Translations under genes and position numbers: made by a program
Shown: positions 28,720 to 54,459 of the stretch, in pieces
How positions within the stretch are numbered: position 1 is the stretch's first letter
Layout: the number at the start of each line of letters is the position of its first letter
Notes under the pieces: generated by a model
The model's input: only the letters and a program-made list of their open reading frames with translations
Told to the model about the DNA's origin: nothing
Databases searched by the model: none
DNA from: an uncultured Candidatus Rokubacteria bacterium
GTDB taxonomy: Bacteria > Methylomirabilota > Methylomirabilia > Rokubacteriales > DASRDR01
Reading direction: 5' to 3'
Length of the DNA stretch: 64,000 nt
Assembly: GCA_963826115.1 (NCBI GenBank)
Contig: CAWGVS010000012.1
Span: 192,001 to 256,000, forward strand

Positions 28720-28889
28720 CGCGGCCTCCGGATCAGGCGGCGATAGGATAGCCGACCGCTCCGGCGCCGACAAACGTCGCCGCAGAGCGGCTGGCTTCCT
28801 GGCGCCGTTGCCTGTAGTATCGGCGCGCGACCGGTCCTCCGCGCCTGCACATCCCTGGCCCCTGCGAGGGGGGCGAGAGGGAGAGTGTG

Positions 28890-30236
28890 ATGCCCCCCAG
28901 CGCTCGAGCCGCCGCGGCCCGCCCTGCCGACCGCACCCCTGCGGACGCCCGCATCGCCATCCGGCTCAAGCCCACCGCCGAGAAGGCCTCCGGGGATCCG
29001 GACGACGGGATCCGCCAGGCGCTCGCGCGCCCTTTGACGGCGCTCCGTGTCAGCGTGAGGATCGATCCGCTGCTGCACTCGGTGGAGCCCCGTCGCCTGG
29101 CGGCCATGATCCGGCAGGCCCGCGAGCTCGACTCCACCTACACGCCTCCGCGCCTGGCGGCGTGGCGCCAGATCGTCCTGCTCCCCGAGCCCGGGGCGCG
29201 CCTGGAGACGGAGCTCGTCGACGGGCTCGTCCGCTACCTACAGAAGCTGGACGCCGTCGACAGCGTGTACGCCATGCGCGCCGGGCCGCCTCCGACGACG
29301 ATACGCCCCGGCAACGATCCGCGCAGCGCCAAGCAAGGCTACCTGGACCCCGCCCCGGGCGGGATCGACGCGCGCTACGCCTGGGCCAAGGGCGGGACCG
29401 GCGCCGGCATCGGCTTCGTCGACCTGGAGCAGGGGTGGAAGCTCGACCACAAGGACCTCGTCGCCGCGAACATCACGCTCATCTCGGGTCTGAACAAGGA
29501 CTACCGTCCGCACGGCACGAGAGTGCTCGGGGTCGTGCGGATGGTCGACAATCGGAAGGGCGGCATCGGCATCGCCCCGAACTGCACGGGACGGGTGATC
29601 TCCCAGCATCGAAACGACGGCGGCGAGAACATCGCCGACGCCATCACCGACGCGGCGGCGCACATGCAGCAGGGCGACGTGCTGCTCCTCGAGGCGCAGG
29701 AGACCGATCCGGTCAAAGGCACTTACGCGTGGCCCGTCGAGGTCACCGACGGCGCCTACGAGTCCATCCGTCTCGCCACGGCGCTGGGCATCGCAGTGAT
29801 CGAGGCGGGCGGCAATGGCTCGTACAACCTGGATGACTACGCCAACGCCGCCGGCGAACGGATCTTCGACCGCAACGGCCCGGGCTTCCGGGATTCGCTG
29901 GCCGTCATGGTCGGCGCGGCCGACTCCGGTGTACACGCGCGGTGGCAAGGCTCCAACTATGGCTCGCGCATCGACTGCTACGGTTGGGGCGAGAACGTCG
30001 ACACCGCGACGACGAATGAGGCGGGGACCACCTCCTCATACGAGCCCAACTTCCTCGCCACGTCGGCCGCGTCGGCCATCGTCGCGGGCGCGGCCGTGAT
30101 CGTGCAGAGCCTCGCCAGCGCCGGGGCGGGCCTGCTCACGCCGAAGAAGCTCCGTGACGCCCTGGTGGCCGGAGGGACACCGTCGGCCCTGCCCGCGGCC
30201 GACCGAATCGGCGTCATGCCGAACCTCCGCCGTTAG
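28890..30236 (+). CDS. S8 (subtilisin-family) serine peptidase, copy 1
   Basis: Triad motifs FVDLEQGW (Asp), HGTRVLG (His), LATSAASAIVAG (Ser) and oxyanion EAGGNG. N-terminal pro-region; no signal peptide. Confidence 0.9.
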   Translation: MPPSARAAAARPADRTPADARIAIRLKPTAEKASGDPDDGIRQALARPLTALRVSVRIDPLLHSVEPRRLAAMIRQARELDSTYTPPRLAAWRQIVLLPEPGARLETELVDGLVRYLQKLDAVDSVYAMRAGPPPTTIRPGNDPRSAKQGYLDPAPGGIDARYAWAKGGTGAGIGFVDLEQGWKLDHKDLVAANITLISGLNKDYRPHGTRVLGVVRMVDNRKGGIGIAPNCTGRVISQHRNDGGENIADAITDAAAHMQQGDVLLLEAQETDPVKGTYAWPVEVTDGAYESIRLATALGIAVIEAGGNGSYNLDDYANAAGERIFDRNGPGFRDSLAVMVGAADSGVHARWQGSNYGSRIDCYGWGENVDTATTNEAGTTSSYEPNFLATSAASAIVAGAAVIVQSLASAGAGLLTPKKLRDALVAGGTPSALPAADRIGVMPNLRR

Positions 30237-30408
30237 CGCCGGCTGAGCGTCACCTGTGATGGTTCGACGGCGAAACGGTACGATCCGCGCGTCATTGCGG
30301 ATTGAGCTCCGCGTCCGCGAGACCTTGCCGCTCGTTTCTCCAGCCGCGCGTCGGCACCGACCGAAGGAGCGTGGAATGGCCTAGGGATCCTTCACCGGAG
30401 GAGGACGT

Positions 30409-30843
30409 ATGAACCTCATGAAAGTCAGGTTCAAGTGGCGCACGCAGACGTTGGATTTCGACCCGACTGACCCCTGCGGCAATGACGAGACGGACACGCC
30501 GGCCACAGAGGCCCCGGTCGGAAACGCACCGGTTCTGAACACCATCCTGCTGTACGAGGGCAACGGATGTTGGTACGTCAACGAGGGTCAGAACTGGTGG
30601 ACGTGGTGCGCGGCCAATACGGTTCTCAGAGTCAGGTTGAGGAAGAATGGCTCCGTCCAGGCGGTGGCGCGGAGGATCAGCGCCAGCGGCTCGGGTACCT
30701 GGGACGACCTCGATACCGTTGACCCGCCGGGAAACGTCGCTCTCAGAGATGCGTGCACGATCCGTGATGGCACTCCCGTTGGTGCGCCGCCAGCACCGTG
30801 TCGTTGGGTCATCCAGGGCGGGAAAGCCTATAGGATCTGCTAG
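30409..30843 (+). CDS. Peptidase-associated small beta-rich protein, copy 1 (144 aa)
   Basis: RBS GGAGGAGG; clear paralog of 32620..33051; ends PAPCRWVIQGGKAYRIC. Confidence 0.85.
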   Translation: MNLMKVRFKWRTQTLDFDPTDPCGNDETDTPATEAPVGNAPVLNTILLYEGNGCWYVNEGQNWWTWCAANTVLRVRLRKNGSVQAVARRISASGSGTWDDLDTVDPPGNVALRDACTIRDGTPVGAPPAPCRWVIQGGKAYRIC

Positions 30844-30850
30844 ACCCGCG

Positions 30851-30887
30851 CCCGCGGGGCCGCGCGGCGAGCCCGCGGCCCCGCGGG
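30851..30887 (+). terminator. 14-bp perfect inverted repeat after the partner gene (terminator/stabiliser hairpin)
   Basis: cccgcggggccgcg-N9-cgcggccccgcggg; no strong U-tract. Confidence 0.5.
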
Positions 30888-30980
30888 ATGTCCTTCCCGA
30901 CCGCGAGACACGCGCGCGCGGCCGACGTTGCGCGCGAGACGAGGCGACCCCCCGCCGCGGCACCACCGGCGGCGAGCATG

Positions 30981-31040
30981 GAAGACGCGCCGAATGGCCT
31001 GGCGGCCGTCCCACAGAGCGAGGCGACATGAACCTCATGA
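30981..31040 (+). pseudogene. Stump (5' UTR, RBS, first four codons MNLM) of a third partner gene
   Basis: gaagacgcgccgaatggcctggcggcc...acagagcgaggcgacATGAACCTCATGA aligns with the leaders and starts of both intact partner genes. Confidence 0.7.
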
Positions 31041-31105
31041 TGGATCACGCGACGCGGGCGCCCATCTACGTCCAAGAACCCCGGTGACGGGGCGAAGGAA
31101 GGACG

Positions 31106-32473
31106 ATGCCCCCGAACAGGAGTGCCGCGGCCACTCGCCCGGCCCAGCCGGCTCTGCCGGAGGCTCGCATCGCCATCCGGCTCAAGCCCAGCGCGGGAAC
31201 CGGATCCTCCCCCAGCCCGGACGACGGGATCCGGCAGGCGTTCGCGAGCACCCTCACGCCGCCTGGGCTCCGTCTGAGCATCGAGCCCTTGTTCAAGTCG
31301 GTCGGGCCGCGCGAGATCGCGGCCATGATTCAGCGCGCCAAGGCCTTCGACCCAACCTACACGCCTCCGGCCCTCGACACATGGCGCCAAGTCATCTTGC
31401 GCGCCGGCCCAAGGGCGCCTCTCGAGGCATCGATCGTCGACCAGCTCGTCGACGGCCTGCAGAGGCTCGCCACTGTGGACAGCGTTTACGCCATGCGCGT
31501 CGGGCCGCCGCCGGAGGTCCGCCCCGGCGACGACCCACGCACCCCCCGCCAAGGCTACCTGGACCCCGCCCCATGCGGGATCGATGCGCGCCACGCCTGG
31601 ACCTTCGAGGGCGGGACCGGGGCCGGCGTCGGGTTCGTCGACCTGGAGCAGGGATGGCACCTCGACCACGAGGACCTGGTGGACGCCCGCATTGCGCTCA
31701 TCTCGGGCGTCAACAAGAAGTACCGCCCGCACGGCACAGCCGTGCTCGGCATCGTGTTGATGGTCGACAACGCCATCGGAGGCGTGGGCATCGCCCCGAG
31801 CTGCACGGGACGCGTGATCTCCCAGCATCGAGACGACGGCGGCGAGAACATCGCCGACGCCATCACCGACGCGGCGGCGCACATGCAGCGGGGCGACGTG
31901 CTGCTCCTCGAGGCGCAGGAGTATCATCCGGTGATCAAGTCATACGGGTGGCCTGTCGAGATCGTCACACTCCACTTCGATCTCATTGAGTTCGTCACGA
32001 AACAGGGCATCACGGTGATCGAGGCCGCCGGCAACGGCAATTTCGACCTGGACACCTATGTGAACGCTGCCGGGGTGCGCATCTTTGACCGTGGTAGCCC
32101 GGGCTTCCGCGACTCCGGGGCGGTCATGGTCGGGGCGGCCGAGCCGTGGGAACAGCACCCGCGCTGGGGCGGCTCCAACTTTGGCTCGCGCATCGACTGC
32201 TACGGCTGGGGCAACGGCATCGACACCGCGTGGACGAACGACGCGAGAACGAAGTACACCCCCTCCTTCCCAGGCACGTCGGGCGCCTCCGCCATCGTCG
32301 CGGGCGCTGCCGTGATCTTGCAGGGACGGGCACGCGCAGGATCGGGACGACCCCTCTGGCCGCTGGAGCTCCGGAACGCACTGCTGACCGGCGGTACCCC
32401 TTCGGCCCAGCCCTCCGGCGACCGGATCGGACTCATGCCCAACCTCCGGGCCATCATCGAAGCGGGCCGCTGA
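31106..32473 (+). CDS. S8 (subtilisin-family) serine peptidase, copy 2
   Basis: FVDLEQGW, HGTAVLG, EAAGNG and FPGTSGASAIVAG; colinear paralog of copy 1; no signal peptide. Confidence 0.92.
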   Translation: MPPNRSAAATRPAQPALPEARIAIRLKPSAGTGSSPSPDDGIRQAFASTLTPPGLRLSIEPLFKSVGPREIAAMIQRAKAFDPTYTPPALDTWRQVILRAGPRAPLEASIVDQLVDGLQRLATVDSVYAMRVGPPPEVRPGDDPRTPRQGYLDPAPCGIDARHAWTFEGGTGAGVGFVDLEQGWHLDHEDLVDARIALISGVNKKYRPHGTAVLGIVLMVDNAIGGVGIAPSCTGRVISQHRDDGGENIADAITDAAAHMQRGDVLLLEAQEYHPVIKSYGWPVEIVTLHFDLIEFVTKQGITVIEAAGNGNFDLDTYVNAAGVRIFDRGSPGFRDSGAVMVGAAEPWEQHPRWGGSNFGSRIDCYGWGNGIDTAWTNDARTKYTPSFPGTSGASAIVAGAAVILQGRARAGSGRPLWPLELRNALLTGGTPSAQPSGDRIGLMPNLRAIIEAGR

Positions 32474-32619
32474 TCGGCTCACCGTACCCGAGGCACCACG
32501 GGTCGTTTGCGGTTCGAGTGCCGAGTGCGCTAGACTGCCGCTCGTTTCGGCACCTCATCCGCTGTCACTCAACGGAGGCGCGTCGAATCGCCCAGGGGCC
32601 TGAGACAGAAGGAGACGAC

Positions 32620-33051
32620 ATGAACCTTATGAAGGTGAAGTTCAAGTGGCGTACTGCACATCTGGACCTCGATCCGAACGATCCCGCCGCCAACGACGAG
32701 ACCGACGCGCCGGCCGTGTTGTCCCCGCCGGGAATCGTCACTTTGGTGAACACCGTTCGACTCTTTTCGAATTCCGACACGGGATACTGGTACGTCAACG
32801 ACGGCGCGACTTGGTGGCCGTGGCCGGGCGACACGACGTTCAAGGTTAGAGTGAAGCAGAATGGGTCGGTCGGCGCGGTCCTATGGAAGAGGGGGCCGAC
32901 GGATTTCGTGCCCATAGGGTCCACCAACACGCAGCCCGCCGGCGTCGCCCGAAGAGATACCTGCACGATCGAAGACGGCAATGAACCTGGCTCACCCCCG
33001 GCGCCGTGCCGTTGGGTCGTCCAGGGAGGGAAAGCCTACAAGATCTGCTAG
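32620..33051 (+). CDS. Peptidase-associated small beta-rich protein, copy 2 (143 aa)
   Basis: RBS AAGGAG; MNLMKVKFKWRT...PAPCRWVVQGGKAYKIC. Confidence 0.85.
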   Translation: MNLMKVKFKWRTAHLDLDPNDPAANDETDAPAVLSPPGIVTLVNTVRLFSNSDTGYWYVNDGATWWPWPGDTTFKVRVKQNGSVGAVLWKRGPTDFVPIGSTNTQPAGVARRDTCTIEDGNEPGSPPAPCRWVVQGGKAYKIC

Positions 33052-33211
33052 GCGGTCCTCCGATAGTGCCCGCCTGACGGCGGGCCCGTCGTGACCACTT
33101 CTCGGCGGGCGGCCTCACGTGCGGCCTGCGCCGCACGCGAGACCGCAAGCCCGCGGCGTGACATCATGGTCCTTGTTCGACTAGGCACCAGTCAGGTAAG
33201 GAGACGACCCA

Positions 33212-33652: not shown

Positions 33653-33823
33653 CTAGAGGTCGACGAAGCGGCCGCCCACCCACGCGAGCGGCGCGCGGAC
33701 GCGCGTGCCGGTGTACACCGACACGGCGACGCCCCGACCGGCCAGGGCCGCCACCATGGCGAGCCGCCGGCGGGGATGGCTCACCTCCGGCATGCAGAAG
33801 ACCGCGGCGAGCGGGGCGGTCAC
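33653..33823 (-). pseudogene. Truncated N-terminus of a GT1/MGT-like glycosyltransferase
   Basis: AVFCMPEVSH...MVAALAGRGVAVSVYT...VGGRFVDL* resembles the first beta-alpha-beta of GT-B enzymes. GTG is coupled to the methyltransferase stop. Confidence 0.5.
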
Positions 33824-34689
33824 CGCGCGTCGGAGCCGGGCGGGCCGGGTCGATCGGACTCCATGCCGGGGGCGAGCCCCCGCGCGATGTCCGCCTCGGA
33901 CCGCCCGTTGATCCACGGATAGGTCGAGAGGAGCACCGGCGTCCCCTTGAGGGCCGCGACCGTGACGCGGTCCGCCGCCTTCCCGGGCTCGAAGGGCACG
34001 TGGCCCTCGAGCACCGAGGTGAACCCGACGTCGTGCAGCACCCGGAGTAGCGACGGGCGCGTCAGGCGAAAGCTCCAGGCGTTGTCGATCGACCGCAGCA
34101 CGCGCGCGCGCCGGACCTCGGCGGGATCGTGGTCCTCGTGCTCGCGGTGGCGGCGGCCGTGGTACGTGCGATCCCGCCAGGCGGCGGTCTCCTCCCCGTC
34201 CGGGCTGATCAGCGTGTCGACTACCACCAGGCGCTCGCAGATGTCTCCGACGTGCTCCAGCACCGAGAACAGGTCCGGAGCGTCCAGGTGATAGAGGAGC
34301 CCCAGGAGGTACACGACGTCGAACGTCCCGTGCGTGGCGCGGGTCACGCGGCGCACGTCCTCCTGGACGAACCGCACGGCGCGCACGTCGTGGCGCGCGG
34401 CGCAGCCGGCGCCGAGCGCCATGCGCTCGGTCCGGGCGTCGAGCGCCAGCACCTCGGCCCCGCGAAGGGCCGCCTCGATCGCGTACACGCCCTCGCCGCA
34501 GCCGAGGTCGAGGATCCGCAGCGTCTCGAAGGGCCGGCCCGCCAGATCGCGCGTGAGCTGCATGACCCGGCGGACCTTCACCGCGTTCGCCATCCCGGTC
34601 TGCGGCGCGCCCACGCCGGCTTCCAGCCCCTTCCGGGCGAAGAGGAGGAGCGCGTCGGCGTCCAGGGCCCGGGGGGTCTCGTCGGTCAT
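33820..34689 (-). CDS. Class I SAM-dependent methyltransferase
   Basis: ILDLGCGEG and FDVVYLLGLLYHL motifs; AGGAG RBS. Confidence 0.9.
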   Translation of the reverse strand: MTDETPRALDADALLLFARKGLEAGVGAPQTGMANAVKVRRVMQLTRDLAGRPFETLRILDLGCGEGVYAIEAALRGAEVLALDARTERMALGAGCAARHDVRAVRFVQEDVRRVTRATHGTFDVVYLLGLLYHLDAPDLFSVLEHVGDICERLVVVDTLISPDGEETAAWRDRTYHGRRHREHEDHDPAEVRRARVLRSIDNAWSFRLTRPSLLRVLHDVGFTSVLEGHVPFEPGKAADRVTVAALKGTPVLLSTYPWINGRSEADIARGLAPGMESDRPGPPGSDAR

Positions 34690-34749
34690 GTGGCTCCTCT
34701 GGCTCCGTGGGAGTCGAGCGGGCAAGTCATCCGGCGACCCCGCGCGCTG

Positions 34750-35200
34750 GAGTCACGTCCGCTGCCGGTGCCCAGGATGGCCACACATGCAGGAGCTTGC
34801 CCTTCTCCGGCACGCAGGGGGCTTCCGCTCGACGCGCGGCAGGCCGGCGGCGCGCCAGTAGGTGGCCATGACACGCTCCGCGCCCGATCCCGCGCCGATG
34901 GCGTCCAGGAGCGCGTTCCGTACAACCCCCTCGTCGAGCGGGCCGACGCGCGGGTGGACGCGCAGCTCCAAGCCCGGTCCGTCGTCGCCACGATCCGTCT
35001 CGAGGGGCTGGTCGTCCGCCGGCCCGACGCCGAAGCGGGCCGGGAGATGCGTCTCCAGCACGGCGTCGACGTCGAGGACCGTCATCCCGCCCGCCGTGAG
35101 CTTCTCGCGCGGGCAATCGCAGCGGTGACCAGTTGACCCAGATGAGCCACCCCACCAGGGATGGCGTCCGACGAGCGCGACCACACCGCCGCGGCGCGTC
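34750..35200 (-). pseudogene. Degenerate paralogous fragment of the C-terminus of the adjacent PaaK-like gene
   Basis: EKLTAGGMTVLD...LPARFGVGPAD.Q...LRVHPRVGPLD...GAGSGAER...W...ERKP matches EKLTAGGIAFLD...LPARFGGGPADYQ...IHPAVGPLD...GSGSGIER...W...ERRP in 35281..36927. Confidence 0.8.
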
Positions 35201-35280
35201 ACCGGCAGCTCCCGGCGCGGAGCTCGGCGGCGGGCCGGATGTCGTCGCCGAAGAGGCCCACGCCCAGCGTGCTCGAGGTC

Positions 35281-36927
35281 TCAGCCCGGACGGGGTTGAG
35301 GCGTCTCGTCACGTCCGGCCATCCGCGCCCCAGGAGAGCCGACGTGAAGGTGGAGAACCTTGCCCGACGCCATGGCCAGGGGCGGTCGGCGCTCGATTCG
35401 AAGAAACTGCCCGGCCTGCCACAGAAGCCCCGCGAGACGCTCGATTCCCGATCCGGAGCCGGCGGCTTGGAGGAACGCATTCGCCACTTCGTCGAGATCG
35501 AGCGGGCCCACCGCAGGGTGAATCAGGAGCCGTAGACACGGCCGCCCGCTCTCGGCCTCGTCCTCGACCAGCTGGTAGTCGGCCGGGCCCCCGCCGAAGC
35601 GCGCCGGCAAGACCTCCTCGAGCACGCGGACCAGGTCCGCATCCAGAAACGCGATGCCCCCAGCCGTCAGCTTCTCGAAGCTGCGGACGGTCTCGAGATG
35701 GGTCGTCCAGCCATGGGCTTCGAGGGGGCAGCCGCACCTGCGCTGGATCACCCTCGCCTGATCGCCCAGCGACACGTTCAGGAGCACGAAGGGGGCCCTC
35801 GGAAGCAGCGAGGAGACCAGAAGGGTGAGGGGCGGCAGTCCGGCGGCGCCCTCGCCGGATCCGGGCTGGATCAGAGCCTGGGTATCGTGGAGCACGTGGA
35901 CGTCGTCCGGCGCACCCGGGGTGACGCACCCGGCGCCGAGCGGGCCGCCCAGCTCCATGGCCCCGTAGCTCGCGGCGACCGTGGCGCCGGCCATCCGGAT
36001 CGCGTCGAGACGCGTCTCGGTGATCGGCTCGCCCGAGAGCGTGAAACACGCGCCCCGAATGTCGACGCCCTTCTCGAGCGCCGCCTGCGCCAGACGCGCC
36101 GCCGGGCTAGGGGCCATGAAGACGTGCGGGGTGCCCCCACCCCGAAGCACCTCGTGCATCCAGCCGGCGACCTGGAGCGCCTCATCGACGGGGACGTGCT
36201 GGATCCGCGGCAGCGGCACCCCACCCATCAGCCCGCCCCACCGCATGACGCGAGCGCTCCAGCGATACCGAGCGTGGAGCTCGGGTGAGTCGGGATCGAC
36301 TGGCGAGAACCAGCGATCCGGCACCGCCCCGGCGGCCGCGAACCGGAGCAGCACACGCATGGGCGTGCCCCCCGGCACGGCCCAGACGGCGTGACGGCAC
36401 TTCGTCCAGCCCCGCGCGCTGAAGATCAGCCGCTGGTTCACGGCATGTTCGCGGACGGACGCGAGATCGAGCAGCGCCACGGTGGGCAATCCTCGGCTTC
36501 CACCGCTCTGGAGCGGCACGTGCGCGACCGCGAAAGGATTCCGCAGGCGACTCGGATCCACCACGACGGTGGCACTCCCGCGCACCGCGGGTCGCCGGCC
36601 CTTGAACTCGTCCACGGTGAGATAGACGCCCTGCCGGAGCAGAGCACCGAGGGCTCCCTCCACGCCATCGCCGTTGACGAGCTTCTCCAGATCCCCGTAC
36701 TCGCAGCCCGCGAGGTCCAGGAGCTGGCGATAGGGGCTTGCGGCATCGGCGTAGATGATCCGACGGGCCAGGGTGAGGAAGCTGGTCTCCCGGTGCTCGA
36801 GACGTCGGCGAAGGACAGCGCGAGCCTCCTCCAGGCTGACCGGGTGCCGCAGGAAGGCCGGGAGGCGAGCCAAGAACCTCGCGCCGACGAGAGCGTCCTT
36901 CAGTGAGCTCGGGCCGAGCGACTTCAC
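35281..36927 (-). CDS. Adenylate-forming (phenylacetate-CoA ligase/PaaK-like) family protein
   Basis: LQSGGSRG (P-loop-like), SGEP, SYGAMELG, LLNVSLGD, RCGCP and SGKV (A10-like Lys). GTG start after GGAGG. Confidence 0.65.
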   Translation of the reverse strand: MKSLGPSSLKDALVGARFLARLPAFLRHPVSLEEARAVLRRRLEHRETSFLTLARRIIYADAASPYRQLLDLAGCEYGDLEKLVNGDGVEGALGALLRQGVYLTVDEFKGRRPAVRGSATVVVDPSRLRNPFAVAHVPLQSGGSRGLPTVALLDLASVREHAVNQRLIFSARGWTKCRHAVWAVPGGTPMRVLLRFAAAGAVPDRWFSPVDPDSPELHARYRWSARVMRWGGLMGGVPLPRIQHVPVDEALQVAGWMHEVLRGGGTPHVFMAPSPAARLAQAALEKGVDIRGACFTLSGEPITETRLDAIRMAGATVAASYGAMELGGPLGAGCVTPGAPDDVHVLHDTQALIQPGSGEGAAGLPPLTLLVSSLLPRAPFVLLNVSLGDQARVIQRRCGCPLEAHGWTTHLETVRSFEKLTAGGIAFLDADLVRVLEEVLPARFGGGPADYQLVEDEAESGRPCLRLLIHPAVGPLDLDEVANAFLQAAGSGSGIERLAGLLWQAGQFLRIERRPPLAMASGKVLHLHVGSPGARMAGRDETPQPRPG

Positions 36928-37280
36928 CGGTTCAGCCTCCCCGGCACCATAGGACACCGGCCGATGGGTCACAAGTGGGTTCGCTGTCGCAGGGGGTCGT
37001 CCGAGACGGGTTGCAAGCATCGCGAGCGTCGCCAGGGATCGCGGGTCGGTTTCGCCGAAATCGCGCAGGTAGCGAGCCACCGCGACGACCGCGGCCGCCC
37101 TCGGCGATGGTTGACATGGAAAGGGCGCGCGTGGGAGCCTCGGCCCGGCGAGTCCATCCTGGTTTCGCTACCCGCGAGCGAAGCCGCGGCCGAGGCACCG
37201 ATCCGGGATGGCCATGGACGCGATCGGGGCCCGGAGATTCCGGGGAACACCCGTCACCGACTGTCACCGCGGAGGATTCG

Positions 37281-38960
37281 ATGCGATTCGCAGCGCAACG
37301 CTCGCGCCAGGAGGTGGCGCCCCGCTCGCTCGACGTGTGTGTCGTCGGGGCCGGACTCTCCGGGCTCGTGACGATCAAAGAGCTGCTCGACGAAGGGCAT
37401 CGTGTGACGTGCTTCGAGCACGAAGCGCAGGCAGGCGGCAACTTCAACTATCCGACCGGCGCGGCGTACGACACGATGTACCTGACGACGTCCCAGTATT
37501 TCACCGCCTTCTCCTCCTTCCCGCCTCCACTCGACCAGACGCCGCGTCACTGGTCGCGACGGGAGTACGCCCAGTACCTGCACGACTTCTCGATGGAGTT
37601 CCAGCTGCTGCGCCACATCCGATTCGGCATCGAGGTCGTCACCGTGCGACGCGTTCAGGACGGCTCCAGCGAGAAGTTCCTCGTCGAGCACCGGGACTCG
37701 AAGACGGGGCTGTCGACGCGGACCGCGTTCGACGCGATCGCCATCTGCACGGGACCACACTCGGTCAAGACGCCGCGGGTCCCGAGCCTTCCGGGCGCGG
37801 CCAGATTTCGCGGCCGGATCGAGTACGCGACGTCGTACAAGTCCCCGGAACCGTACCGCGGAAAGCACGTCGTGTGCATCGGCCTCGGCGAGACGGCCGC
37901 CGACGTCACCGGCCAGATCGCGGACGTGGCCGCCTCGTGCTGGGCGACCTTTCGTCACTACCCTGCGGTGCTGACGCGCTACATCGAGAAAAAAGCTGGG
38001 CGCTTTCCCAATGACGCCATCTTGGCGCGCCTCGTGCACGCCGTGCCGCGTGCCGTGATCAACCGCATGCAGCTGCGCCGTGCCCGACGCACCCTCGCGG
38101 CTCCTCCCGGGAGGGCCAGCGCGCGGGATCGCCTCATCGCCGAGTGGCGGATCAAGGGCGGAACCCCGGGGCATCAACCGCTGCAGAAGAACGACGAGTT
38201 CATCGACCGAATCGTCGCGGGGACGTTACAGGTGAAGCCGTGCGGGATCGAGCGTCTGGAGGAGGACGCGGTCGTGTTCAGCGACGGCAGCCGAGTGAAG
38301 GCCGACGTCGTGATGTGCTGCACTGGCTTCGACGAAAACAATCCCCCGGTTCTGGTCGAGGGCACCAAACCCTTCACCGTCAGACAGCTCTACAAGCACG
38401 CCTTTCACCCGGACTTCGGCGGACGGCTGGCGTACGTCGGGTGGGCCCGGCCGGTACAGGGCGGCGTCCCGGCGTGCGCCGAGCTCCAGGCGCGATACTT
38501 CGCGCTGCTGTGCAGCGGCCGGAGATCGCTTCCCGAGCCTGCCGACTTGGGCCGTCTGATCGAGAATGACCGGGAGCGCGAGGAGCGCTCCTTCTACGCC
38601 CGCAAGGATCTGGGGACGCTCTGCAGCTACACGACCTACCTGGACTCCGTGGCCGAGCTGATCGGATGTCGGCCCCGGCTGCGAGATCACCTCTTCGAGC
38701 CGAAACTTGCCTATCGCTTGCTCGGTGGGTCGAACATCGCTGCCGCGTATCGGCTACGCGGGCCTCACGCGCAGCCGGAGCTGGCGAAGAGGCTGATCCT
38801 CCGTCTGCCCGTCCTCTTGAGCCCCGTCCAGATGGTAGGCTTCGGCGTTCTGAGCGTGCTCACGCGGGCCGGGGTGCTCAAAGAGCCGAAGCACCCGAGC
38901 GGTCCCGATGATCGCGCGGCTCGGATGCCGGCCATGGCCACTCGGAACGCCGCCGGATAG
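37281..38960 (+). CDS. Flavin-containing monooxygenase (FMO)
   Basis: VVGAGLSG, AICTG, FRGRIEYATSYK (FMO fingerprint variant), IGLGETAAD, CCTGF and AELQARY. Confidence 0.9.
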   Translation: MRFAAQRSRQEVAPRSLDVCVVGAGLSGLVTIKELLDEGHRVTCFEHEAQAGGNFNYPTGAAYDTMYLTTSQYFTAFSSFPPPLDQTPRHWSRREYAQYLHDFSMEFQLLRHIRFGIEVVTVRRVQDGSSEKFLVEHRDSKTGLSTRTAFDAIAICTGPHSVKTPRVPSLPGAARFRGRIEYATSYKSPEPYRGKHVVCIGLGETAADVTGQIADVAASCWATFRHYPAVLTRYIEKKAGRFPNDAILARLVHAVPRAVINRMQLRRARRTLAAPPGRASARDRLIAEWRIKGGTPGHQPLQKNDEFIDRIVAGTLQVKPCGIERLEEDAVVFSDGSRVKADVVMCCTGFDENNPPVLVEGTKPFTVRQLYKHAFHPDFGGRLAYVGWARPVQGGVPACAELQARYFALLCSGRRSLPEPADLGRLIENDREREERSFYARKDLGTLCSYTTYLDSVAELIGCRPRLRDHLFEPKLAYRLLGGSNIAAAYRLRGPHAQPELAKRLILRLPVLLSPVQMVGFGVLSVLTRAGVLKEPKHPSGPDDRAARMPAMATRNAAG

Positions 38961-39046
38961 GATCGGATCTACCGACCCCGGGCCTGTGAGTGTTGATTCG
39001 GCCGGGCGAGGCCGCCCTCGATTCCCGAATCCGCGGGGGGCCTTCC

Positions 39047-41560
39047 CTAGTCCAGCGCCGTCAGCAGGCGACGCTGCGCCTCGAGGCGCTTCGGCCGCTC
39101 CTTCGCGAATCGCGTGACCCCGGCGAGGATCGACTCGGCGTCGAGGTGCGCCTCGGCGATCACGTCGGCCTCGAGCCCGCCGGTCAGCCACTGGTTGTCC
39201 CAGTCGGCCGTCAGCGAGTAGTCGTCGGTGAGCGCGCCGACGTTCCGGAGCGGCCACATGCGGCGCGTGCCGGACATGACGAACATGAGGTCCTGCTTCG
39301 CCTCGGGCGGCAGGACGGCCCGCTGGTACGCGGCCGGCTGCCGGTCGAACAGGTCCTCGCTGATCGCGGCGATGACCTTCACGTTGACGCCGGCCTGCTC
39401 GAGGCGCGGCAGCACGCTGACCAGGTTGAACGTGGCGCTCGAGCCCTGCGCGACCACGTAGCCGTGTCGCGGCCCGGGCGCGAAGTCGCGAACGACGTAC
39501 AGGCCCTTCGCGGCCGCGCGGAGGTCCGTATCGGCGAACTTGGTGCGGTCCGCGACCTTGAAGTCGGGCCGCGCCACCTCGATGACGATGACGCCGACCT
39601 TCTTCTCCCGCGCCGCGATCTCGGCCGCCGCGAAGTACCCGGGCGCGACGTCGTTGTAGTCCCAGAAGCTCAGGTGGATCGTCTGACCGCGCGGGAACAG
39701 CTTCCACACCTGCGGCGCGAAGATTCCGAAGTGGGTGCGCGCGTCCGCCGCGGTCTCCGGGCCGGAGTGCCCGGCGAGTATGTGGAGCACCCCGGTGCGG
39801 AACTTGCTGTCCTGGTTCTGCTGGCTCCACACGCGCGCGGGCAGGTACATGAGCGGCGTGAACGCGCCGTAGGTGCCGCTGAACGCCCACACGCCCGCGA
39901 ACTTGTCGGGGTCGACCGACGCGCTCTGGCTCACCAGACCGATGGCCGTCGAGGCGTTGCCCGCCTCCTGGATCGCCGCCTTGAGGCGCGTGCCGAGCGG
40001 GTTCGTGTCGGGGTCGTAGTGGCCCCAGATGCTCCCGTGCTCCAGGTTGACCGACTCCGACAGGTCCGCGGCCAGCGTGAGCGCGCGGTTCTCGGTCACG
40101 TAGTTCAGCCACTTCACGATCTCCGAGATGCCGCGGCGGGCCCCCGCGACCTCGCCGTACTTCCGGAACAGCGCGACCTTGAGCTGCTTCTCCGCCCCCG
40201 ACACCGGGTTCTTCACCGTCAGGGTCTGCGGCTCCTCGGGCAGGTTCGCGACGCGCAGCCGCTCGTCGAGGAACGGGTCGCGCCGCACGTCGATCCGCAC
40301 CTTGATGTCGTCGGTCAGCGTGTCGCCGATCTCGACCAGCCGGTCCGCGAGCCACTCGCCCAGTCCGTTCCGCTCGAGCACGGACATCGCCACGTCGATG
40401 TTCGTCTTGAACTGGACCAGCCGCTCGCGCGGGTCGGCGACCGCCCCGTCGCGGATCCCGACGAACTTCACCCCGTAGTGCTGCTCGAAGGTCTCGGCGA
40501 GCGCCACGAAGTAGTCCGAGTTCATCTTGAAGGCGTAGGGGTGGCTCGGGAACCCGACGATCTGGTCCGCGTGCGGGAGCTTCCCGTTCACCGCGCCGGG
40601 CCAGTACCCCTTGATCGTCTTGCCGAAGACGATCATCGGCCGGCGGTCCCGCGGGTCCCACTCCTCCATCTGCCGCAGCACCCGGACGATCTGGTCGTAG
40701 TCGTGCCCGTCCGGGATGGAGAAGACGTTCCAGCCGTAGGACGTCCACTGGTCCATCAGGCGGTAGCCGTCGAACTTCCGGTTGACCACGCCGCCGATCA
40801 GCGCGTCGTCGATGCCGGCGTTGTTGTCGGAGAAGAAGATCCGGAGGCGCTTGCCGACCTGGAGGGCGATGGCCTGCGTCTTCAGCTCCTGGGCGTGGCC
40901 CGCGCACATCGCGAACTCGCCCTCGAAGGCGATCACCTTGGGCGACCCCGGCGGCGCGCCGATGAAGTCCCAGAACGCCGCCTTCCCCGCGGCGGTGGCG
41001 ATCCCGACGCCCGAGGGGCCGCCGTTGACGTCGTTGGTCACGTCCGTCGACTCGATGTGCCCGGAGAGCGAGCGGATGCCGCGCCCCCTGGCCTGGGCGA
41101 AGAGCGCGTGGTCGGCGAGCCCCTGGTCCTGGAGCAGGGTCCGGAGCGCGCCGGCGCCGCGCCGGAAGCCGAGGGCGTCGACCGAAAGCATCGTCGCGTC
41201 GGGCGCCACGTGATAGCGGCGATCGCCCGTCGCCTCGTGCCGCCGGTACAGCGCCTCGCCCATGATCATCCAGAGGGCGTAGCAGGTCGGCGCGCAGTGA
41301 CCCGCCGCCAGCATGAACTTGTCGGCGTACGGGTGCTTCTGCCGGCGGTAGTCGAAGCGGAGGCCGCCCGAGGCCGGGCCTGCCAGGTGGGTGGCGACGT
41401 TGAAGGGCGTGTACGCCGTCGGCCCGCCGAAATGCCCGGTCTGCGCGTAGTTACCGAGCAGCGTCAGCGTCATGCAGGTCATGTAGCCGATGTCCTCGAG
41501 GCGCTCCCGCTCCGAGGGTGCCTTCGATGCCCCGACCGACGCTGGCGAGACTCGACTCAT
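39047..41560 (-). CDS. Divergent transketolase-like ThDP enzyme
   Basis: GHFGG, AAGHCAP, LSGHIE, GPSGVG, SDNN, DGHD, TIKG, AADL, AIQE and ADARTH in transketolase order. Confidence 0.85.
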   Translation of the reverse strand: MSRVSPASVGASKAPSERERLEDIGYMTCMTLTLLGNYAQTGHFGGPTAYTPFNVATHLAGPASGGLRFDYRRQKHPYADKFMLAAGHCAPTCYALWMIMGEALYRRHEATGDRRYHVAPDATMLSVDALGFRRGAGALRTLLQDQGLADHALFAQARGRGIRSLSGHIESTDVTNDVNGGPSGVGIATAAGKAAFWDFIGAPPGSPKVIAFEGEFAMCAGHAQELKTQAIALQVGKRLRIFFSDNNAGIDDALIGGVVNRKFDGYRLMDQWTSYGWNVFSIPDGHDYDQIVRVLRQMEEWDPRDRRPMIVFGKTIKGYWPGAVNGKLPHADQIVGFPSHPYAFKMNSDYFVALAETFEQHYGVKFVGIRDGAVADPRERLVQFKTNIDVAMSVLERNGLGEWLADRLVEIGDTLTDDIKVRIDVRRDPFLDERLRVANLPEEPQTLTVKNPVSGAEKQLKVALFRKYGEVAGARRGISEIVKWLNYVTENRALTLAADLSESVNLEHGSIWGHYDPDTNPLGTRLKAAIQEAGNASTAIGLVSQSASVDPDKFAGVWAFSGTYGAFTPLMYLPARVWSQQNQDSKFRTGVLHILAGHSGPETAADARTHFGIFAPQVWKLFPRGQTIHLSFWDYNDVAPGYFAAAEIAAREKKVGVIVIEVARPDFKVADRTKFADTDLRAAAKGLYVVRDFAPGPRHGYVVAQGSSATFNLVSVLPRLEQAGVNVKVIAAISEDLFDRQPAAYQRAVLPPEAKQDLMFVMSGTRRMWPLRNVGALTDDYSLTADWDNQWLTGGLEADVIAEAHLDAESILAGVTRFAKERPKRLEAQRRLLTALD

Positions 41561-41806
41561 GTCCGTGTCCTACCCTTCCTGTGTGAACGACGTTCAGCCC
41601 GAGGATCCATGGGGCGCCCGCGGCACTCCCCGGGCGCGCGCGGCGATGTCCGAGACTGTTCGAGGATTTTACCCGAAGTCGGGCAGGCCTGCCGACCCGG
41701 CCCGGGGGCCGATCCGGCCACGCGGGGCCCGGTCCCCGCCGCCGCCCGCCACCGGGCCCGGGCCCTCTGCTACACTGGCGGGACCCCACCCAAGGAGGGC
41801 TCGAGC

Positions 41807-42769
41807 ATGGCAGGCGGAGCGCCGAAATACGCGTGGATGAACGGCAAGGTCGTCCCCTGGGACCAGTGCGTGGTGCACGGCCGGAGCGCCGGCGGCTTCA
41901 TGGGCAGCAACGTGTTCGAGGGGGTCCGGGCCTACTGGAACGCCCGGCAGGGCGAGCTGTTCGTGTTCAAGCACGAGGAGCACCTCCAGCGGCTCGCGCG
42001 CTCGATGAAGACCGTCCGGCTCGAGGTGCCGTATACGCTCCGCGACATCGAGCAGGGGGCGATGGACCTCCTCCGGGCCAACGAGTTCCGCGAGGACGCC
42101 CATTTCGTGCCGGTGGCGTTCTTCGGGATGGGAGCGCAGAACTTCAACACGCTCGGGCCGACGATCGACAACGGCGTCTACATCACGGCGGTGCCCTGGC
42201 CCCAGCCGGCTGCGCTGTCGAACGGCGTGGCGGCCTGCGTCGCCTCGTGGCGGCGCATCAGCGACGACAGCGTGCCTCCGCGGCTCAAGGCGGGCGCCAA
42301 CTACCAGAACAGCCGCCTCGCCCAGACCGAGGCCAAGGTGAACGGCTACGACACCGCGATCATCCTGAACCACCGCGGCACGGTGGCGGAGGGGCCCGGC
42401 GCCTGCCTGATGATGGTGCGGGACGGGAAGCTGGTCACGCCGCCCGTCACCGCGGGCATCCTCGAGAGCATCACCCGGTCCACGCTGATGGACCTCGCGG
42501 TCCGGGAGCTCGGCATCGACGTGGTCGAGCGGGAGATCGACCGGACGGAGCTCTACGCGGCGGACGAGGTGTTCATGTGCGGGAGCGGCCTCGAGGTGCT
42601 GCCCATCACCTCCGTGGACCGTCTCGCGGTCGGGGAGGGCGCGCGCGGGCCCGTCACCCGGCGCATCCAGGACGTCTACTTCGCCGCAGCCCGCGGCGAG
42701 ATGCCGGCCTACCGGCAGTGGCTGACGCCCGTGTATCGCGCGACGCGCCAGCCGGTGCTGGCCGGCTAG
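41807..42769 (+). CDS. ilvE: Branched-chain amino acid aminotransferase (class IV PLP)
   Basis: VFEGVRAY, HLQRL, LKAGANY, EGPG, ILESITR and ADEVFMCGS. Confidence 0.9.
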   Translation: MAGGAPKYAWMNGKVVPWDQCVVHGRSAGGFMGSNVFEGVRAYWNARQGELFVFKHEEHLQRLARSMKTVRLEVPYTLRDIEQGAMDLLRANEFREDAHFVPVAFFGMGAQNFNTLGPTIDNGVYITAVPWPQPAALSNGVAACVASWRRISDDSVPPRLKAGANYQNSRLAQTEAKVNGYDTAIILNHRGTVAEGPGACLMMVRDGKLVTPPVTAGILESITRSTLMDLAVRELGIDVVEREIDRTELYAADEVFMCGSGLEVLPITSVDRLAVGEGARGPVTRRIQDVYFAAARGEMPAYRQWLTPVYRATRQPVLAG

Positions 42770-42830
42770 CGTCCCGATCCGCCGCGACGGGATCGGGCGC
42801 GGCGGTGGCCGCGCCCAGCCCGACCAAGCG

Positions 42831-44069
42831 TCAGGACGGGGCGGCGGCGCGGAAGCTGAACGCGGGGTCGAGGGGCGGCAGCGGGGCGCCGAAGAACAGG
42901 CGCCGCTGGAGCCGGGGAAACAGCCCTGAGCGCACCGCCAGCGGCAGCACCTGCCGGACGACCCACCGTGTCATCGGGCTCCGGCTCCCCGACCCGAGGA
43001 GCGTCTGGCCGGCCCGTCGCTGGAGCGCGTGGAGCGTCCGCACGTCCGGCTCGCGGATCGCCTGGACGCGGGCGAGGGCGTCCTGCGGGATCGGCCCGTG
43101 CCCCAGCCGCGGGTAGATCTCCTGGGCGGCGATCGCGGCCGTCGACAGCGCGACGTTCACGCCGATCGCGCCGGCCGGGCTCATCGTGTGGGCGGCGTCG
43201 CCGATCAGGAGCGCGCCGTGGCGCGCCCATTCGCGTACCAGCAGGATCACGGCCGGCAGCGGGAAGAACGGGGTGAAGTCGCGGAGGCCGGCCGCGAAGT
43301 CCGCGAACAGGGGATCCAGCCGCCGGATCCGCTCGGCGACGGCCGGGACGCCCTCCTGGCGCCAGCTCCGCCAGACCTCCTTCTCGAGGAGGAGCCCCAC
43401 CTGGATCTGGTTCGGGTACTTCGGCAGCATCAGGAGCGGGACCTTGCCGATGGAGAAGTAGATCGTCCGCGGCCAGTCCGCGGGCGGGTCGACGACGAAC
43501 CAGATCACGTCGAAGTCGTCGTGCTCGTACTCGGTGACGAACCCGCCCAGGCGCCGGATCGTGGAGTGACGGCCGTCGGCGCCGACAACCACGTCGGCCC
43601 GCACCTCGAACGCCTCCGCCCCGTGCCGGCGGCCCCGGACCCCCACCACGGCGCCGCTCTCCACGACCAGCTCCGTCACCCGCGCGCCCATCCAGCACTG
43701 GAACCCGGGGTAGAGCGCGCCCTTCCGCTGGAGGGCGTCGAGGAAGACCGGCTGGGGCATCCAGATCGCGTAGGGATACTCCGGGACGACCCGCCGGAAG
43801 TCGAAGCCCCCGGCGGGCTTCCCGTCGACGAGAAGCCGGCCGACGGTCAGGGTGATGTGCGGCTGCGCCTGGACGTACTCGAGGAGTCCGATCTCGTCGA
43901 GGAGCCGCGCCGTGCTCGGCTGCAGGACCTCGCCCCGGAACTCGCGGTCGAAGTTCTCATGCCCCTCGAGCACGACCACCCGGGCCCCGCGCTTCGCCAG
44001 GAGCAAGCCGAGCAGGAGCCCGGCCGGGCCGCCGCCCACCACGCAGACGTCGACACGCGACTCCGCCAT
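42831..44069 (-). CDS. FAD-dependent oxidoreductase/monooxygenase (UbiH-like family)
   Basis: VVGGGPAG, DFDREFRGE-like motif, VGADGRHS and IGDAAHTMSPAGAIGVN. Confidence 0.9.
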   Translation of the reverse strand: MAESRVDVCVVGGGPAGLLLGLLLAKRGARVVVLEGHENFDREFRGEVLQPSTARLLDEIGLLEYVQAQPHITLTVGRLLVDGKPAGGFDFRRVVPEYPYAIWMPQPVFLDALQRKGALYPGFQCWMGARVTELVVESGAVVGVRGRRHGAEAFEVRADVVVGADGRHSTIRRLGGFVTEYEHDDFDVIWFVVDPPADWPRTIYFSIGKVPLLMLPKYPNQIQVGLLLEKEVWRSWRQEGVPAVAERIRRLDPLFADFAAGLRDFTPFFPLPAVILLVREWARHGALLIGDAAHTMSPAGAIGVNVALSTAAIAAQEIYPRLGHGPIPQDALARVQAIREPDVRTLHALQRRAGQTLLGSGSRSPMTRWVVRQVLPLAVRSGLFPRLQRRLFFGAPLPPLDPAFSFRAAAPS

Positions 44070-44124
44070 GCCGATTCCCTGCGTCGATCATAGGGCGCGG
44101 GCCCGCCCGGCGGAAGGGCCGCGC

Positions 44125-44616: not shown

Positions 44617-44714
44617 GTCAATTCCACCGTAGCAGGCCCTTCGGGCGCGGCCCGCAGAATTGTGCCGGCCCCAGCCAGACCGGACCGCGTCGAGGACGCG
44701 CCGGGCGCGGCGCG

Positions 44715-45734: not shown

Positions 45735-45744
45735 CAGGCGCCTC

Positions 45745-54393: not shown

Positions 54394-54399
54394 GGGCCG

Positions 54400-54451
54400 A
54401 TGATAGCGCACCCGGGGGCCCGGACGCCGCCGCGAGCCGCCATGCTAGAGT
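54400..54451. promoter_or_regulatory. Divergent -10 elements directly upstream of start codons (putative leaderless transcripts)
   Basis: Minus-strand TATCAT (54405-54400) lies 6 nt before the larA ATG. Plus-strand TG-c-TAGAGT (54443-54451) lies 8 nt before GTG 54460. Neither has an SD sequence. Confidence 0.5.
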
Positions 54452-54459
54452 CGCCGCAC

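Follow-up and report, generated by a model that had tools for sequence, protein, structure and literature searches.

The question raised by this locus is whether an S8 peptidase gene and the small gene that follows it, found here twice in succession, form a functional pair and, if so, what the small protein does to the enzyme. In the window, by which we mean the whole 64,000-nucleotide stretch of a soil bacterium's genome that was analysed, the open reading frames at 28887–33051 form two units on one strand, with an S8 peptidase leading each unit and a partner of about 144 residues coming after it, and the following features:

28887..30236, + strand: S8-A, 449 aa from a GTG start, the next ATG being at 28890
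30237..30408, + strand: spacer between S8-A and partner A, 172 nt, with the ribosome-binding site GGAGGAGG at its 3' end
30409..30843, + strand: partner A, an all-beta orphan of 144 aa with 7 Trp and 6 Cys
30848..30891, + strand: GC-rich hairpin, 5 nt past the partner A stop
30983..31043, + strand: remnant third copy of the partner 5' region, upstream of S8-B
31106..32473, + strand: S8-B, 455 aa, the paralogous subtilase zymogen as read from its sequence
32474..32619, + strand: spacer between S8-B and partner B, 146 nt, with the ribosome-binding site GAAGGAG
32620..33051, + strand: partner B, 143 aa, lacking the first Cys pair
33068..33085, + strand: weaker 7-bp GC hairpin, past the partner B stop

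The direct tandem arrangement reported in a preliminary description of this DNA holds at the nucleotide level. Unit 28911–30843 aligns with 31124–33051 at 72% identity over 1970 columns, the two conserved spacers included, and the products share 65% (S8-A and S8-B) and 51% (partner A and partner B) of their residues. The ribosome-binding sites described as strong lie 5–7 nt upstream of both partner ATGs. The S8-A/partner A spacer shows no significant RNA fold (z +0.66), and no Rfam family reaches its gathering score there. Each unit has its hairpin 3' of the partner and not between peptidase and partner. The one after partner A (−40.6 kcal/mol, z −3.3; 2 of 200 shuffled sequences reached this energy) was recovered as a palindrome in the alignment of the two units; it was not called in a scan for T-tract terminators and is likely to be the end or a stabiliser of the unit-1 transcript. 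Downstream of partner B, a 61-nt window reaches −28.9 kcal/mol (z −1.9). The remnant third copy, which belongs to a repeat family of three copies (D10) and is 75% identical to 32576–32635, holds a ribosome-binding site and ATGAACCTCATG at 31028–31039 with an ORF of only 19 codons, and alignments identify it as the junction of a natural variant of the locus (L011).

The partner regions are, as had been noted, more AT-rich than their surroundings (GC about 0.62 versus 0.70–0.76), and GC3 runs from 0.77–0.78 in the partners and 0.87–0.90 in the peptidases to 0.92–0.97 in flanking genes; both peptidase and partner depart in codon composition from what is typical of this genome. Next to the units lie genes for an unknown 138-aa protein, for an opposite-strand methyltransferase and for metabolism; no defence-island or mobile-element genes were found around the locus.

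Judged from sequence, both peptidases are divergent subtilase zymogens with an intact triad. They match PF00082 at 33.2 bits (S8-A) and 37.8 bits (S8-B), the cut-off being 21.8, in agreement with the genome scan, and the D/H/S triad, already recognised in the preliminary description, is invariant in an alignment of 120 sequences as D179/H209/S393, together with the oxyanion residue N310. The pro-region proposed there takes shape in the S8-A model (pLDDT 90.8) as a predicted alpha/beta prodomain at about 22–130, followed by a low-confidence, flexible linker (139–147) and by a catalytic domain that extends to the C-terminus. Foldseek returned subtilases for this model (best E 1.6e-15; all 46 matches listed of the 326 in the PDB at E ≤ 0.001), and it aligns with pro-subtilisin E, pro-Tk-subtilisin, EpiP and fervidolysin over 445–491 columns. 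Pfam prodomain models did not match residues 1–150 even at E ≤ 10, and the best PDB sequence match (E 5.6e-4) places both enzymes far from classical subtilisins.

Neither peptidases nor partners have a signal peptide by hydropathy, as stated earlier: the maximum 15-residue Kyte-Doolittle mean within the first 60 residues is 0.75–0.87 for the former and 1.0–1.4 for the latter, and no further upstream extension of the ORFs is possible. Both enzymes do stop where the catalytic domain stops, whereas 61 of 119 homologues run on for at least 290 residues, in an extension of about 320. In a sliding window, the identity of S8-A to S8-B is lowest at about 271–315 (0.43 versus 0.65 overall), a segment that we take, by alignment with subtilisins, to line the substrate cleft and in which S8-B leaves a family consensus that is otherwise conserved. 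At least 1789 proteins make up the S8 clade, and fungal (Sordariales) proteins are among the homologues of the two enzymes.

The partner belongs to a very rare family, with about a dozen relatives among roughly 15 billion proteins, and has no known family or fold. That its family could not be recognised from the letters is borne out by searches with Pfam, NCBIfam, PADLOC and PHROGs models, none of which matched; at E ≤ 0.01 Pfam and NCBIfam gave 0 families for either partner, their peptidase-inhibitor profiles, including Streptomyces subtilisin inhibitor, among those that neither matched. Structure prediction of the partner alone, which had been proposed as a check, gave for partner A a confident single all-beta domain of ten strands (pLDDT 87.2, pTM 0.83) with no fold match among solved and viral structures (best Z 4.0). 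A conserved N-terminal strand (K9, T12) is predicted to lead into an acidic, lower-confidence linker (about 12–41) before the core. The motifs said to be common to both partners are indeed present in this 51% identical pair (the N-terminal block, WYVN..WW.W, NGSV and the C-terminal PPAPCRWV.QGGKAY.IC); W55, W63, W64, P107, C131, G137, G138 and C144 are conserved, and the alignment columns for residues 91–110 and 121–130 are variable. Beyond acidic composition, no cleavage motif is conserved across 13 partner sequences. Across the alignment, the two residues of the first Cys pair occur together or not at all, which is what a disulfide would produce. An oxidising, extracytoplasmic site is suggested by the paired cysteines, yet an export signal is absent by hydropathy. 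With dN/dS values of 0.16 (partner A) and 0.34 (partner B) against the L011 orthologues, both partners are under purifying selection.

We searched the family's other 20 genomes and found neither the peptidase (E ≤ 1e-20) nor the partner (E ≤ 0.01 in protein and E ≤ 0.001 in profile searches). Natural variants differ in content, with a single unit, both units, or two partners beside one peptidase; in L011, S8-B is gone and partner B is intact, a state compatible with a binder retained alone. This copy-number variation fits a fast-changing locus, and also plain duplication and loss. Order, strand and spacer are kept in both diverged units and in related strains. All examples of adjacency come from close relatives with 77–94% identity and thus amount to a single evolutionary observation. 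Further away, one genome (G018) encodes a truncated partner relative (C-terminal half only, 23.7 bits) with no S8 gene in the 16 kb fetched, about 8 kb on each side, and no S8 of this clade elsewhere in that genome at E ≤ 1e-20. None of the 119 best S8 homologues has a longest contig equal in length to that of any distant partner homologue, a weak hint that distant partners do not lie beside a close S8 relative. An S8–partner fusion was absent from 1.84 billion representatives except for one protein (P0124), apparently a deletion product. Given about a dozen partners and at least 1789 peptidases, the S8 clade as a whole does not need the partner.

The preliminary description had proposed both that each peptidase acts on, or is inhibited by, its partner and that the array serves a conflict or peptide-product role. 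The first part, taken as a functional link between each peptidase and its partner, remains plausible, because the units were duplicated whole, spacer included, because the codon composition of both genes is atypical and neither gene was found in the 20 related genomes searched, and because a hairpin ends each unit after the partner and both partners are under purifying selection. The second part found no direct support: PADLOC gave 0 matches for the 7 proteins searched, and neither a RiPP family nor a defence island was found. Hallmarks of two known kinds of system were looked for at the locus and not found, namely those of a gasdermin–protease or IetAS system (0 PADLOC families for the 7 proteins, no gasdermin or IetA ATPase neighbour) and those of a RiPP precursor with its leader peptidase (no leader family, maturase or exporter beside the locus).

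The reading that we put forward, tentatively and with less than even confidence, is that of a laterally acquired, duplication-prone two-gene cassette in which the partner would bind its cognate peptidase and inhibit it or hold it back. Gene 1 would supply a signal-less subtilase zymogen that consists of a prodomain of its own and a catalytic domain that ends the protein, and gene 2 a compact, all-beta member of a very rare protein family. The partner may dock on the mature catalytic domain by exposed, fast-changing loops (about 91–110 and 121–130, the latter ending at the invariant Cys131) and would keep the enzyme from acting, or from leaving, until it is released; once duplicated, the pairs would have diverged into two enzyme/partner specificities. 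What the analysis shows is the anatomy, the duplication of both genes as a unit, their joint presence and absence, the purifying selection and the want of a known family or fold; binding, inhibition, contact loops and cognate specificity are our inference. Against a cognate binder, the peptidase already carries, according to the model, a prodomain, the usual intramolecular inhibitor; the G018 relative has no S8 in 16 kb; and there is no genuine fusion.

Two known pairs resemble such a cassette. In Myxococcus xanthus, where popD lies directly downstream of popC and for which we know of no duplication array, PopC and PopD are likewise a signal-less subtilase of about 50 kDa and a small partner of no known family. 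The present enzymes, too, are signal-less subtilases with an extra N-terminal part, a likeness of architecture only. PopC is described as a 50.8-kDa subtilase with an N-terminal part and without a signal peptide, whose secretion is blocked by PopD in complex with it (PMC6434023). It is placed in the subtilisin group proper (PMC9549277), unlike S8-A and S8-B, which at 33–38 bits to PF00082 are far from classical subtilisins. The potempins of Tannerella forsythia are reported as beta-barrel inhibitors of 98–132 residues, co-transcribed with and specific for their peptidases, and PotC inhibits the S8 peptidase mirolase via a disulfide-tethered loop (PMC9890683). The KLIKK-peptidase/potempin pairs are alike in being several co-localised pairs of a peptidase and a small all-beta protein, one of them with an S8 enzyme, and differ in that, as described, the potempin genes lie upstream and encode lipoproteins with signal peptides, whereas the partner here is downstream and signal-less. 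The partner has no sequence relation to any Pfam model, and no potempin is among its best 50 structural matches (best Z 4.0), which does not exclude the potempin fold, an OB-fold or a beta-barrel of eight strands built from hairpin repeats.

The adjacency could also mean nothing functional, an orphan gene beside a peptidase having been copied jointly with it by segmental duplication, which we judge unlikely though a serious contender. It comes from one lineage, the partners differ from the peptidases in GC3, the spacers, at 146–172 nt, are longer than a tight operon would lead one to expect, no S8 accompanies the G018 fragment in the 16 kb fetched, and natural variants drop S8-B yet retain partner B; these points are set against the joint absence of the pair from related genomes, the preservation of order, strand and spacer in both diverged units and in related strains, the position of the hairpin after the partner and not between the genes, and the purifying selection on both partners. 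A rather unlikely alternative is that the partner is a pro-protein substrate cut by the adjacent subtilase, for example in the acidic linker. By an equally slender estimate, what such a cut sets free or activates would be a Trp-rich beta domain stapled by disulfides, with a role as a cell-death effector, a signal, a secreted toxin or a bacteriocin-like protein. The conserved strand and the acidic, lower-confidence linker between it and the core would suit a pro-protein, and the co-variation of the Cys pairs suggests that the end product is extracellular, but the strand is modelled inside the fold and not as a detachable leader, and the 13 sequences conserve no cleavage motif. L011, with one peptidase and two partner genes, is like a maturase with several precursors, and leader peptidases of the LanP/EpiP type are precedents for a dedicated S8 enzyme beside small genes, EpiP being a full-length match of S8-A. 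Unlike RiPP precursors, however, the partner is a folded 144-residue domain and not a short, leader-bearing peptide, and no leader family (NHLP, Nif11 or similar), modifying enzyme, transporter or other exporter was found nearby. A further precedent is HET-Q2, an S8 protease whose gene is reported to adjoin that of HET-Q1, the gasdermin that it cleaves and activates (PMC8851545). The HET-Q2 triad, D35/H105/S266 (PMC8851545), indicates an enzyme without a long N-terminal prodomain, unlike S8-A and S8-B, and the partner is half the size of gasdermins, with no PADLOC match and no likeness to gasdermins or solved pore-formers above background (best Z 4.0).

We regard it as improbable that the partner serves the peptidase as an accessory subunit, held non-covalently, which would aid targeting or the binding of substrate in place of the cis C-terminal domains of most relatives. 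Both enzymes end where 61 of 119 homologues enter their extension, and the partner is Trp-rich (7 W), as are many binding modules. Bacillus plasmid homologues of the peptidases carry C-terminal binding modules, and in a locus of the same phylum (L017) the small beta domain at the C-terminus of an S8 recurs just downstream as a separate protein. Profile comparison, on the other hand, gave the partner probabilities of 0.3% against the C-terminal and 0.8% against the N-terminal extension, only 3 of the 61 extension queries had weak in-frame tblastn matches to partner B (E 0.003–0.04), and no natural partner–peptidase fusion was found among the 1.84 billion representatives. The boldest proposal, a long shot in our estimation, is a new fold family of small, Cys-stapled, Trp-rich beta effectors gated by proteolysis, which their N-terminal strand would keep inert until the cognate cytoplasmic subtilase cuts the acidic linker and whose core would then act as a toxin or as a membrane-active cell-death or competition factor, making the array an undescribed conflict module.

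Whether the partner proves to control the peptidase or to be its product, it is a domain modelled with confidence for which no relative was detected among solved or viral structures, and this rare family offers a well-defined and cheap target for studies of expression, binding and structure. Should the partner be activated by the protease, it would represent a small secreted or cell-death protein of a new kind. If instead it binds and controls the peptidase, it would add a new, structurally unrelated family to the few known bacterial subtilase regulators (PopD, the potempins and SSI), and the two units would provide a natural pair of diverged enzyme/partner specificities in which to study the co-evolution of an interface.

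The preliminary description had proposed an S8 peptidase gene followed by a small gene, repeated in direct tandem, and this arrangement was confirmed as four plus-strand genes at 28887-33051 of the window, which lies within contig C12 of a 6.24 Mb host genome of ~72% GC:

28887-30236, plus strand, peptidase S8-A, 449 aa
30409-30843, plus strand, partner A, 144 aa
31106-32473, plus strand, peptidase S8-B, 455 aa
32620-33051, plus strand, partner B, 143 aa

Aligning the two units (28911-30843 against 31124-33051), we observed 72% nucleotide identity over 1970 columns, with the peptidase-partner spacer included. The peptidases are 65% identical at the protein level and the partners 51%; the motifs quoted earlier as common to both partners are present in their alignment, and a strong ribosome-binding site precedes each partner gene, as had been stated. 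Synonymous divergence is lower for the peptidase pair (0.51) than for the partner pair (1.1), and a 300-nt block of the S8 genes (29389-29688 against 31608-31907) is 86% identical, compared with 71-81% in other duplication blocks, which could be due to gene conversion or to stronger constraint near the Asp/His region. The peptidase-partner spacers measure 146-172 nt and contain no significant RNA fold. A 19-bp GC hairpin (-40.6 kcal/mol, z -3.3) lies 3' of partner A and a weaker one 3' of partner B. The Rfam scan returned just two sub-threshold snoRNA-like matches, both within S8 genes, and scans of the plus strand for sigma-70 promoters and T-tract terminators found none.

S8-A and S8-B are members of family S8 by profile, catalytic triad and fold. 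Their modest PF00082 scores (33 and 38 bits, cut-off 21.8) and best PDB sequence match (E 5.6e-4) place them in a divergent S8 clade; two canonical S8 genes elsewhere in the same genome score 134-140 bits. The D/H/S triad, noted before as kept, is invariant in an alignment of 120 sequences (D179, H209, S393), as is the oxyanion residue N310. The S8-A model (pLDDT 90.8, pTM 0.92) places an alpha/beta domain at 22-130 ahead of the catalytic domain, with residues 139-147 as a low-confidence linker between the two, and matched subtilases in a structure search at E 1.6e-15. Its alignment across 445-491 columns with pro-subtilisin E, pro-Tk-subtilisin, EpiP and fervidolysin identifies residues 22-130 as prodomain-like, in keeping with the pro-region claimed; no Pfam prodomain model matches this domain. 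Signal peptides had been described as missing, and indeed no hydrophobic N-terminus was found in either peptidase and neither ORF can be extended upstream. The two peptidases are least alike at residues 271-315 (43% identity against 65% overall), where S8-B departs from the family consensus and which, by comparison with subtilisin, we take to border the substrate cleft.

The clade is large, with at least 1789 proteins at E<=1e-10 among 8000 candidates scored, and its members extend to Sordariales fungi and, on plasmids of the Bacillus cereus group, to secreted proteases with several domains (Bacillus accounts for 184 of the 195 plasmid records). A conserved, unannotated C-terminal extension of at least 290 residues is present in 61 of the 119 best homologues and an N-terminal extension of at least 150 residues in 18, the remainder being short or intermediate forms. 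The C-terminal extension (~320 residues, NLAPDLY.RD...YVR.LNRGG...GHYCFVA..., homologues P0006-P0122) has no Pfam annotation and is common to bacteria and Sordariales fungi (Podospora, Triangularia, Apiosordaria); the N-terminal one is TPM-like and membrane-spanning and replaces it. In the catalytic-domain tree (FastTree), S8-A is sister to S8-B plus the homologue P0004, and the three sit on long branches within a group of mostly short forms. No partner-like gene was seen near S8 homologues at 12 same-phylum loci or at the plasmid loci. Another arrangement of an S8 gene with a small downstream beta protein occurs at locus L017 (945-3003, genome G119, same phylum), where a 592-aa S8 homologue ending in a small beta domain (...YWICVTNLTNQPVAIEGRYAVLGW) precedes an 84-aa protein consisting of a copy of this domain alone (...TYWLTVHNLTNQTINFEGRYAVLN); the small protein is unrelated to the partner. 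We rejected an origin of the partner by detachment of the terminal extensions seen in longer S8 relatives: the hhalign probability was 0.3% for the C-terminal and 0.8% for the N-terminal extension, the partner HMM found nothing in the 119 S8 homologues, and weak in-frame tblastn matches to partner B from 3 of the 61 extension queries (E 0.003-0.04) were not significant.

The partner had been assigned to no recognised family, and this held in Pfam, NCBIfam, PADLOC and PHROGs; in the literature, where the search was aimed at analogues, the family being nameless, no description of it was found. An exhaustive HMMER scan of 1.84 billion representatives returned 10 matches at E<=0.001, seven of which are proteins of 143-165 aa, and a profile search added two members (P0133 and P0134). 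Distant homologues of full length comprise P0125, P0126, P0127, P0129 (on an 8.7-kb contig), P0131, P0132, P0133 and P0134 (on an 89-kb contig). P0124 (319 aa), another of the ten, joins S8-A-like residues 1-~205 in frame to partner residues ~36-144, and we read it either as a deletion product in a related strain, with both genes destroyed, or as a misassembly or assembly collapse. Two repeat proteins, P0128 and P0130, which matched through 5-6 repeated short stretches (E 7e-6 and 3e-5), were discarded as spurious; against the partner profile they gave E 1.7e-5 and 0.0074 in the 132-sequence set, with per-domain scores of ~2 bits. Within the phylum, partner A also gave six weak matches (16-20 bits, E 5e-4 to 7.5e-3), several of them interrupted by stop codons and one in the unpublished genome G217, on which no conclusion here depends; these were set aside, as were the false loci L010 and L013, whose 13 matching residues lie antisense to a different ORF. 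Pattern searches gave 15 matches in the genome contig collection (one passed), 15 in metagenome contigs (three passed) and 40 in the viral contig collection (none passed). The plasmid collection, queried with the distant partner homologue P0129, gave no match, and the partner profile had none in any of the 401 genomes sampled from the phylum to which genome G251 belongs, an uninformative blank. In genome G018, of the same class, a 103-aa ORF (locus L037, 8019-8330, contig C77) matches the C-terminal half only of the family (…CWYVIVGGRAYRIC; 23.7 bits with the profile, GC3 0.66). It is flanked by a TonB-dependent-receptor fragment and an IS200-like transposase, with CHASE2-cyclase and FecR-TPR genes upstream, and may be a decayed or minimal member.

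Residues W55, W63, W64, P107, C131, G137, G138 and C144 are invariant in the 13 aligned members, in which the last Cys is the C-terminal residue or lies at most 2 residues from it. The first Cys pair, formed by a GCW motif and the Cys after WW.W, is present in 10 of the 13 and jointly absent from the three of the partner B clade. This pattern would fit two hairpin-stapling disulfides, predicted as C54-C67 and C131-C144, though the Cys count of partner B is odd. The partner model, built on this shallow alignment of 13 sequences, is all-beta with ten strands (pLDDT 87.2, pTM 0.83). Foldseek gave no PDB match at E<=0.001 (best 0.34) and a best E of 0.06 in BFVD, the ESM Atlas gave no usable match, and an exhaustive VIA-align comparison with 48,161 chains gave none at Z>=5; the best Z of 4.0 (3typ_A, rmsd 4.7, 85 residues) is below the typical background reported by the tool. 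We conclude that the partner, as modelled from so shallow an alignment, has no detectable known fold. Its most variable stretches are loops 91-110 and 121-130, the latter ending at the invariant Cys131.

Related sequences show the locus in other states. A 1569-bp metagenome contig (L011, 85% nucleotide identity) contains the S8-A C-terminus, partner A and partner B and lacks S8-B. Its junction coincides exactly with a 60-nt remnant copy of the partner 5' region upstream of S8-B in the window (30983-31043, including ATGAACCTCATG at 31028-31039), with 75% identity between this remnant and the real start region of partner B; the simplest account is that S8-B was deleted by recombination between the remnant and partner B start repeats. 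A soil-metagenome contig (run X5, record 28, 2789 bp, ~94% identical) covers 29073-30951 and resumes at 33198, with 184 other letters between, and shows a single unit, S8-A plus partner A, with a 138-aa gene downstream of it. The same gene follows partner B in locus L012. These variants indicate that the locus gains and loses units. Since the 138-aa gene has homologues in 7 of 14 cassette-free genomes of the genus, it lies outside the cassette; its homologues in G244 and G232 have no other gene in common with the window, and homologues of the flanking genes are on different contigs in relatives, so no insertion borders could be placed from these comparisons. Further downstream, 33820-48100 and 61124-62413 hold tailoring-type genes (SAM methyltransferase, an unannotated 599-aa protein at 35281-37080, flavin monooxygenase, transketolase-like protein, FAD monooxygenase, sulfotransferase and, further on, a Trp-halogenase-like gene), which may form a biosynthetic cluster unrelated to the cassette, and 53245-56829 encodes a 1194-aa protein with multihaem cytochrome c motifs and C-terminal TPR repeats.

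GC3 is 0.77-0.78 for the partners, 0.87-0.90 for the peptidases and 0.92-0.97 for the neighbours. A clade peptidase was found in 11 of 250 other phylum genomes, all members of another family, with identities of 37-42%, and in none of 20 other genomes of the window's own family; in the same 250 genomes the partner was found in none with the protein query, after discounting the six weak matches, and in one with the profile. The dN/dS values against a related strain (partner A 0.16, partner B 0.34, S8-A C-terminus 0.33), together with co-duplication, low GC3 and this distribution, make the cassette look laterally acquired and maintained.

We tentatively favour the reading in which the partner is a cognate binder of the peptidase and would act as an inhibitor or hold-back factor. 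That it is an unrelated neighbour is a lesser yet serious prospect: all observed cases of adjacency involve close relatives, so that the link rests on one lineage; the G018 ORF has no S8 gene within 16 kb around it (~8 kb each side) and its genome no clade S8 at E<=1e-20; and the best 119 S8 homologues and the distant partner homologues have no longest-contig size in common. We counted these observations, and the spacers, as against a link or neutral to it, and a predicted complex of S8-A 140-449 with partner A, from separate alignments for the two chains, gave neither support nor evidence against. We consider it rather unlikely that the partner is a pro-protein processed by the protease, and the conflict or peptide-product role suggested earlier gained no direct support, as nothing typical of defence systems, RiPPs or gasdermins was found. 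A trans-acting targeting subunit seems improbable, and what probability remains is left for readings not considered here.

This ranking draws on the variable partner loops, the divergence of S8 residues 271-315 and two experimentally studied precedents, PopC/PopD and the potempins, whose anatomy would fit the cassette. In excerpts of the reports, PopC, a subtilase of 50.8 kDa, resembles our peptidases in having an N-terminal part and lacking a signal peptide, and is bound by PopD, which keeps it from being secreted (PMC6434023); PopC belongs to the classical subtilisin group (PMC9549277), whereas S8-A and S8-B fall in a divergent clade. Excerpts on Tannerella forsythia describe six KLIKK peptidases, each co-transcribed with a specific beta-barrel inhibitor of 98-132 residues, and PotC blocking the S8 peptidase mirolase via a disulfide-tethered reactive loop (PMC9890683); unlike the partner, potempins have a lipoprotein signal and a gene upstream of the peptidase. 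HET-Q2, with its triad D35/H105/S266, is in the excerpted account (PMC8851545) without a long prodomain, unlike S8-A. The cassette pair may work like PopC/PopD or a potempin pair, a likeness of description that need not mean family membership. With the partner as a cognate binder, the cassette would pair a peptidase with a dedicated partner of an undescribed protein family; both that family and its possible new fold are genuine and could be tested at low cost.
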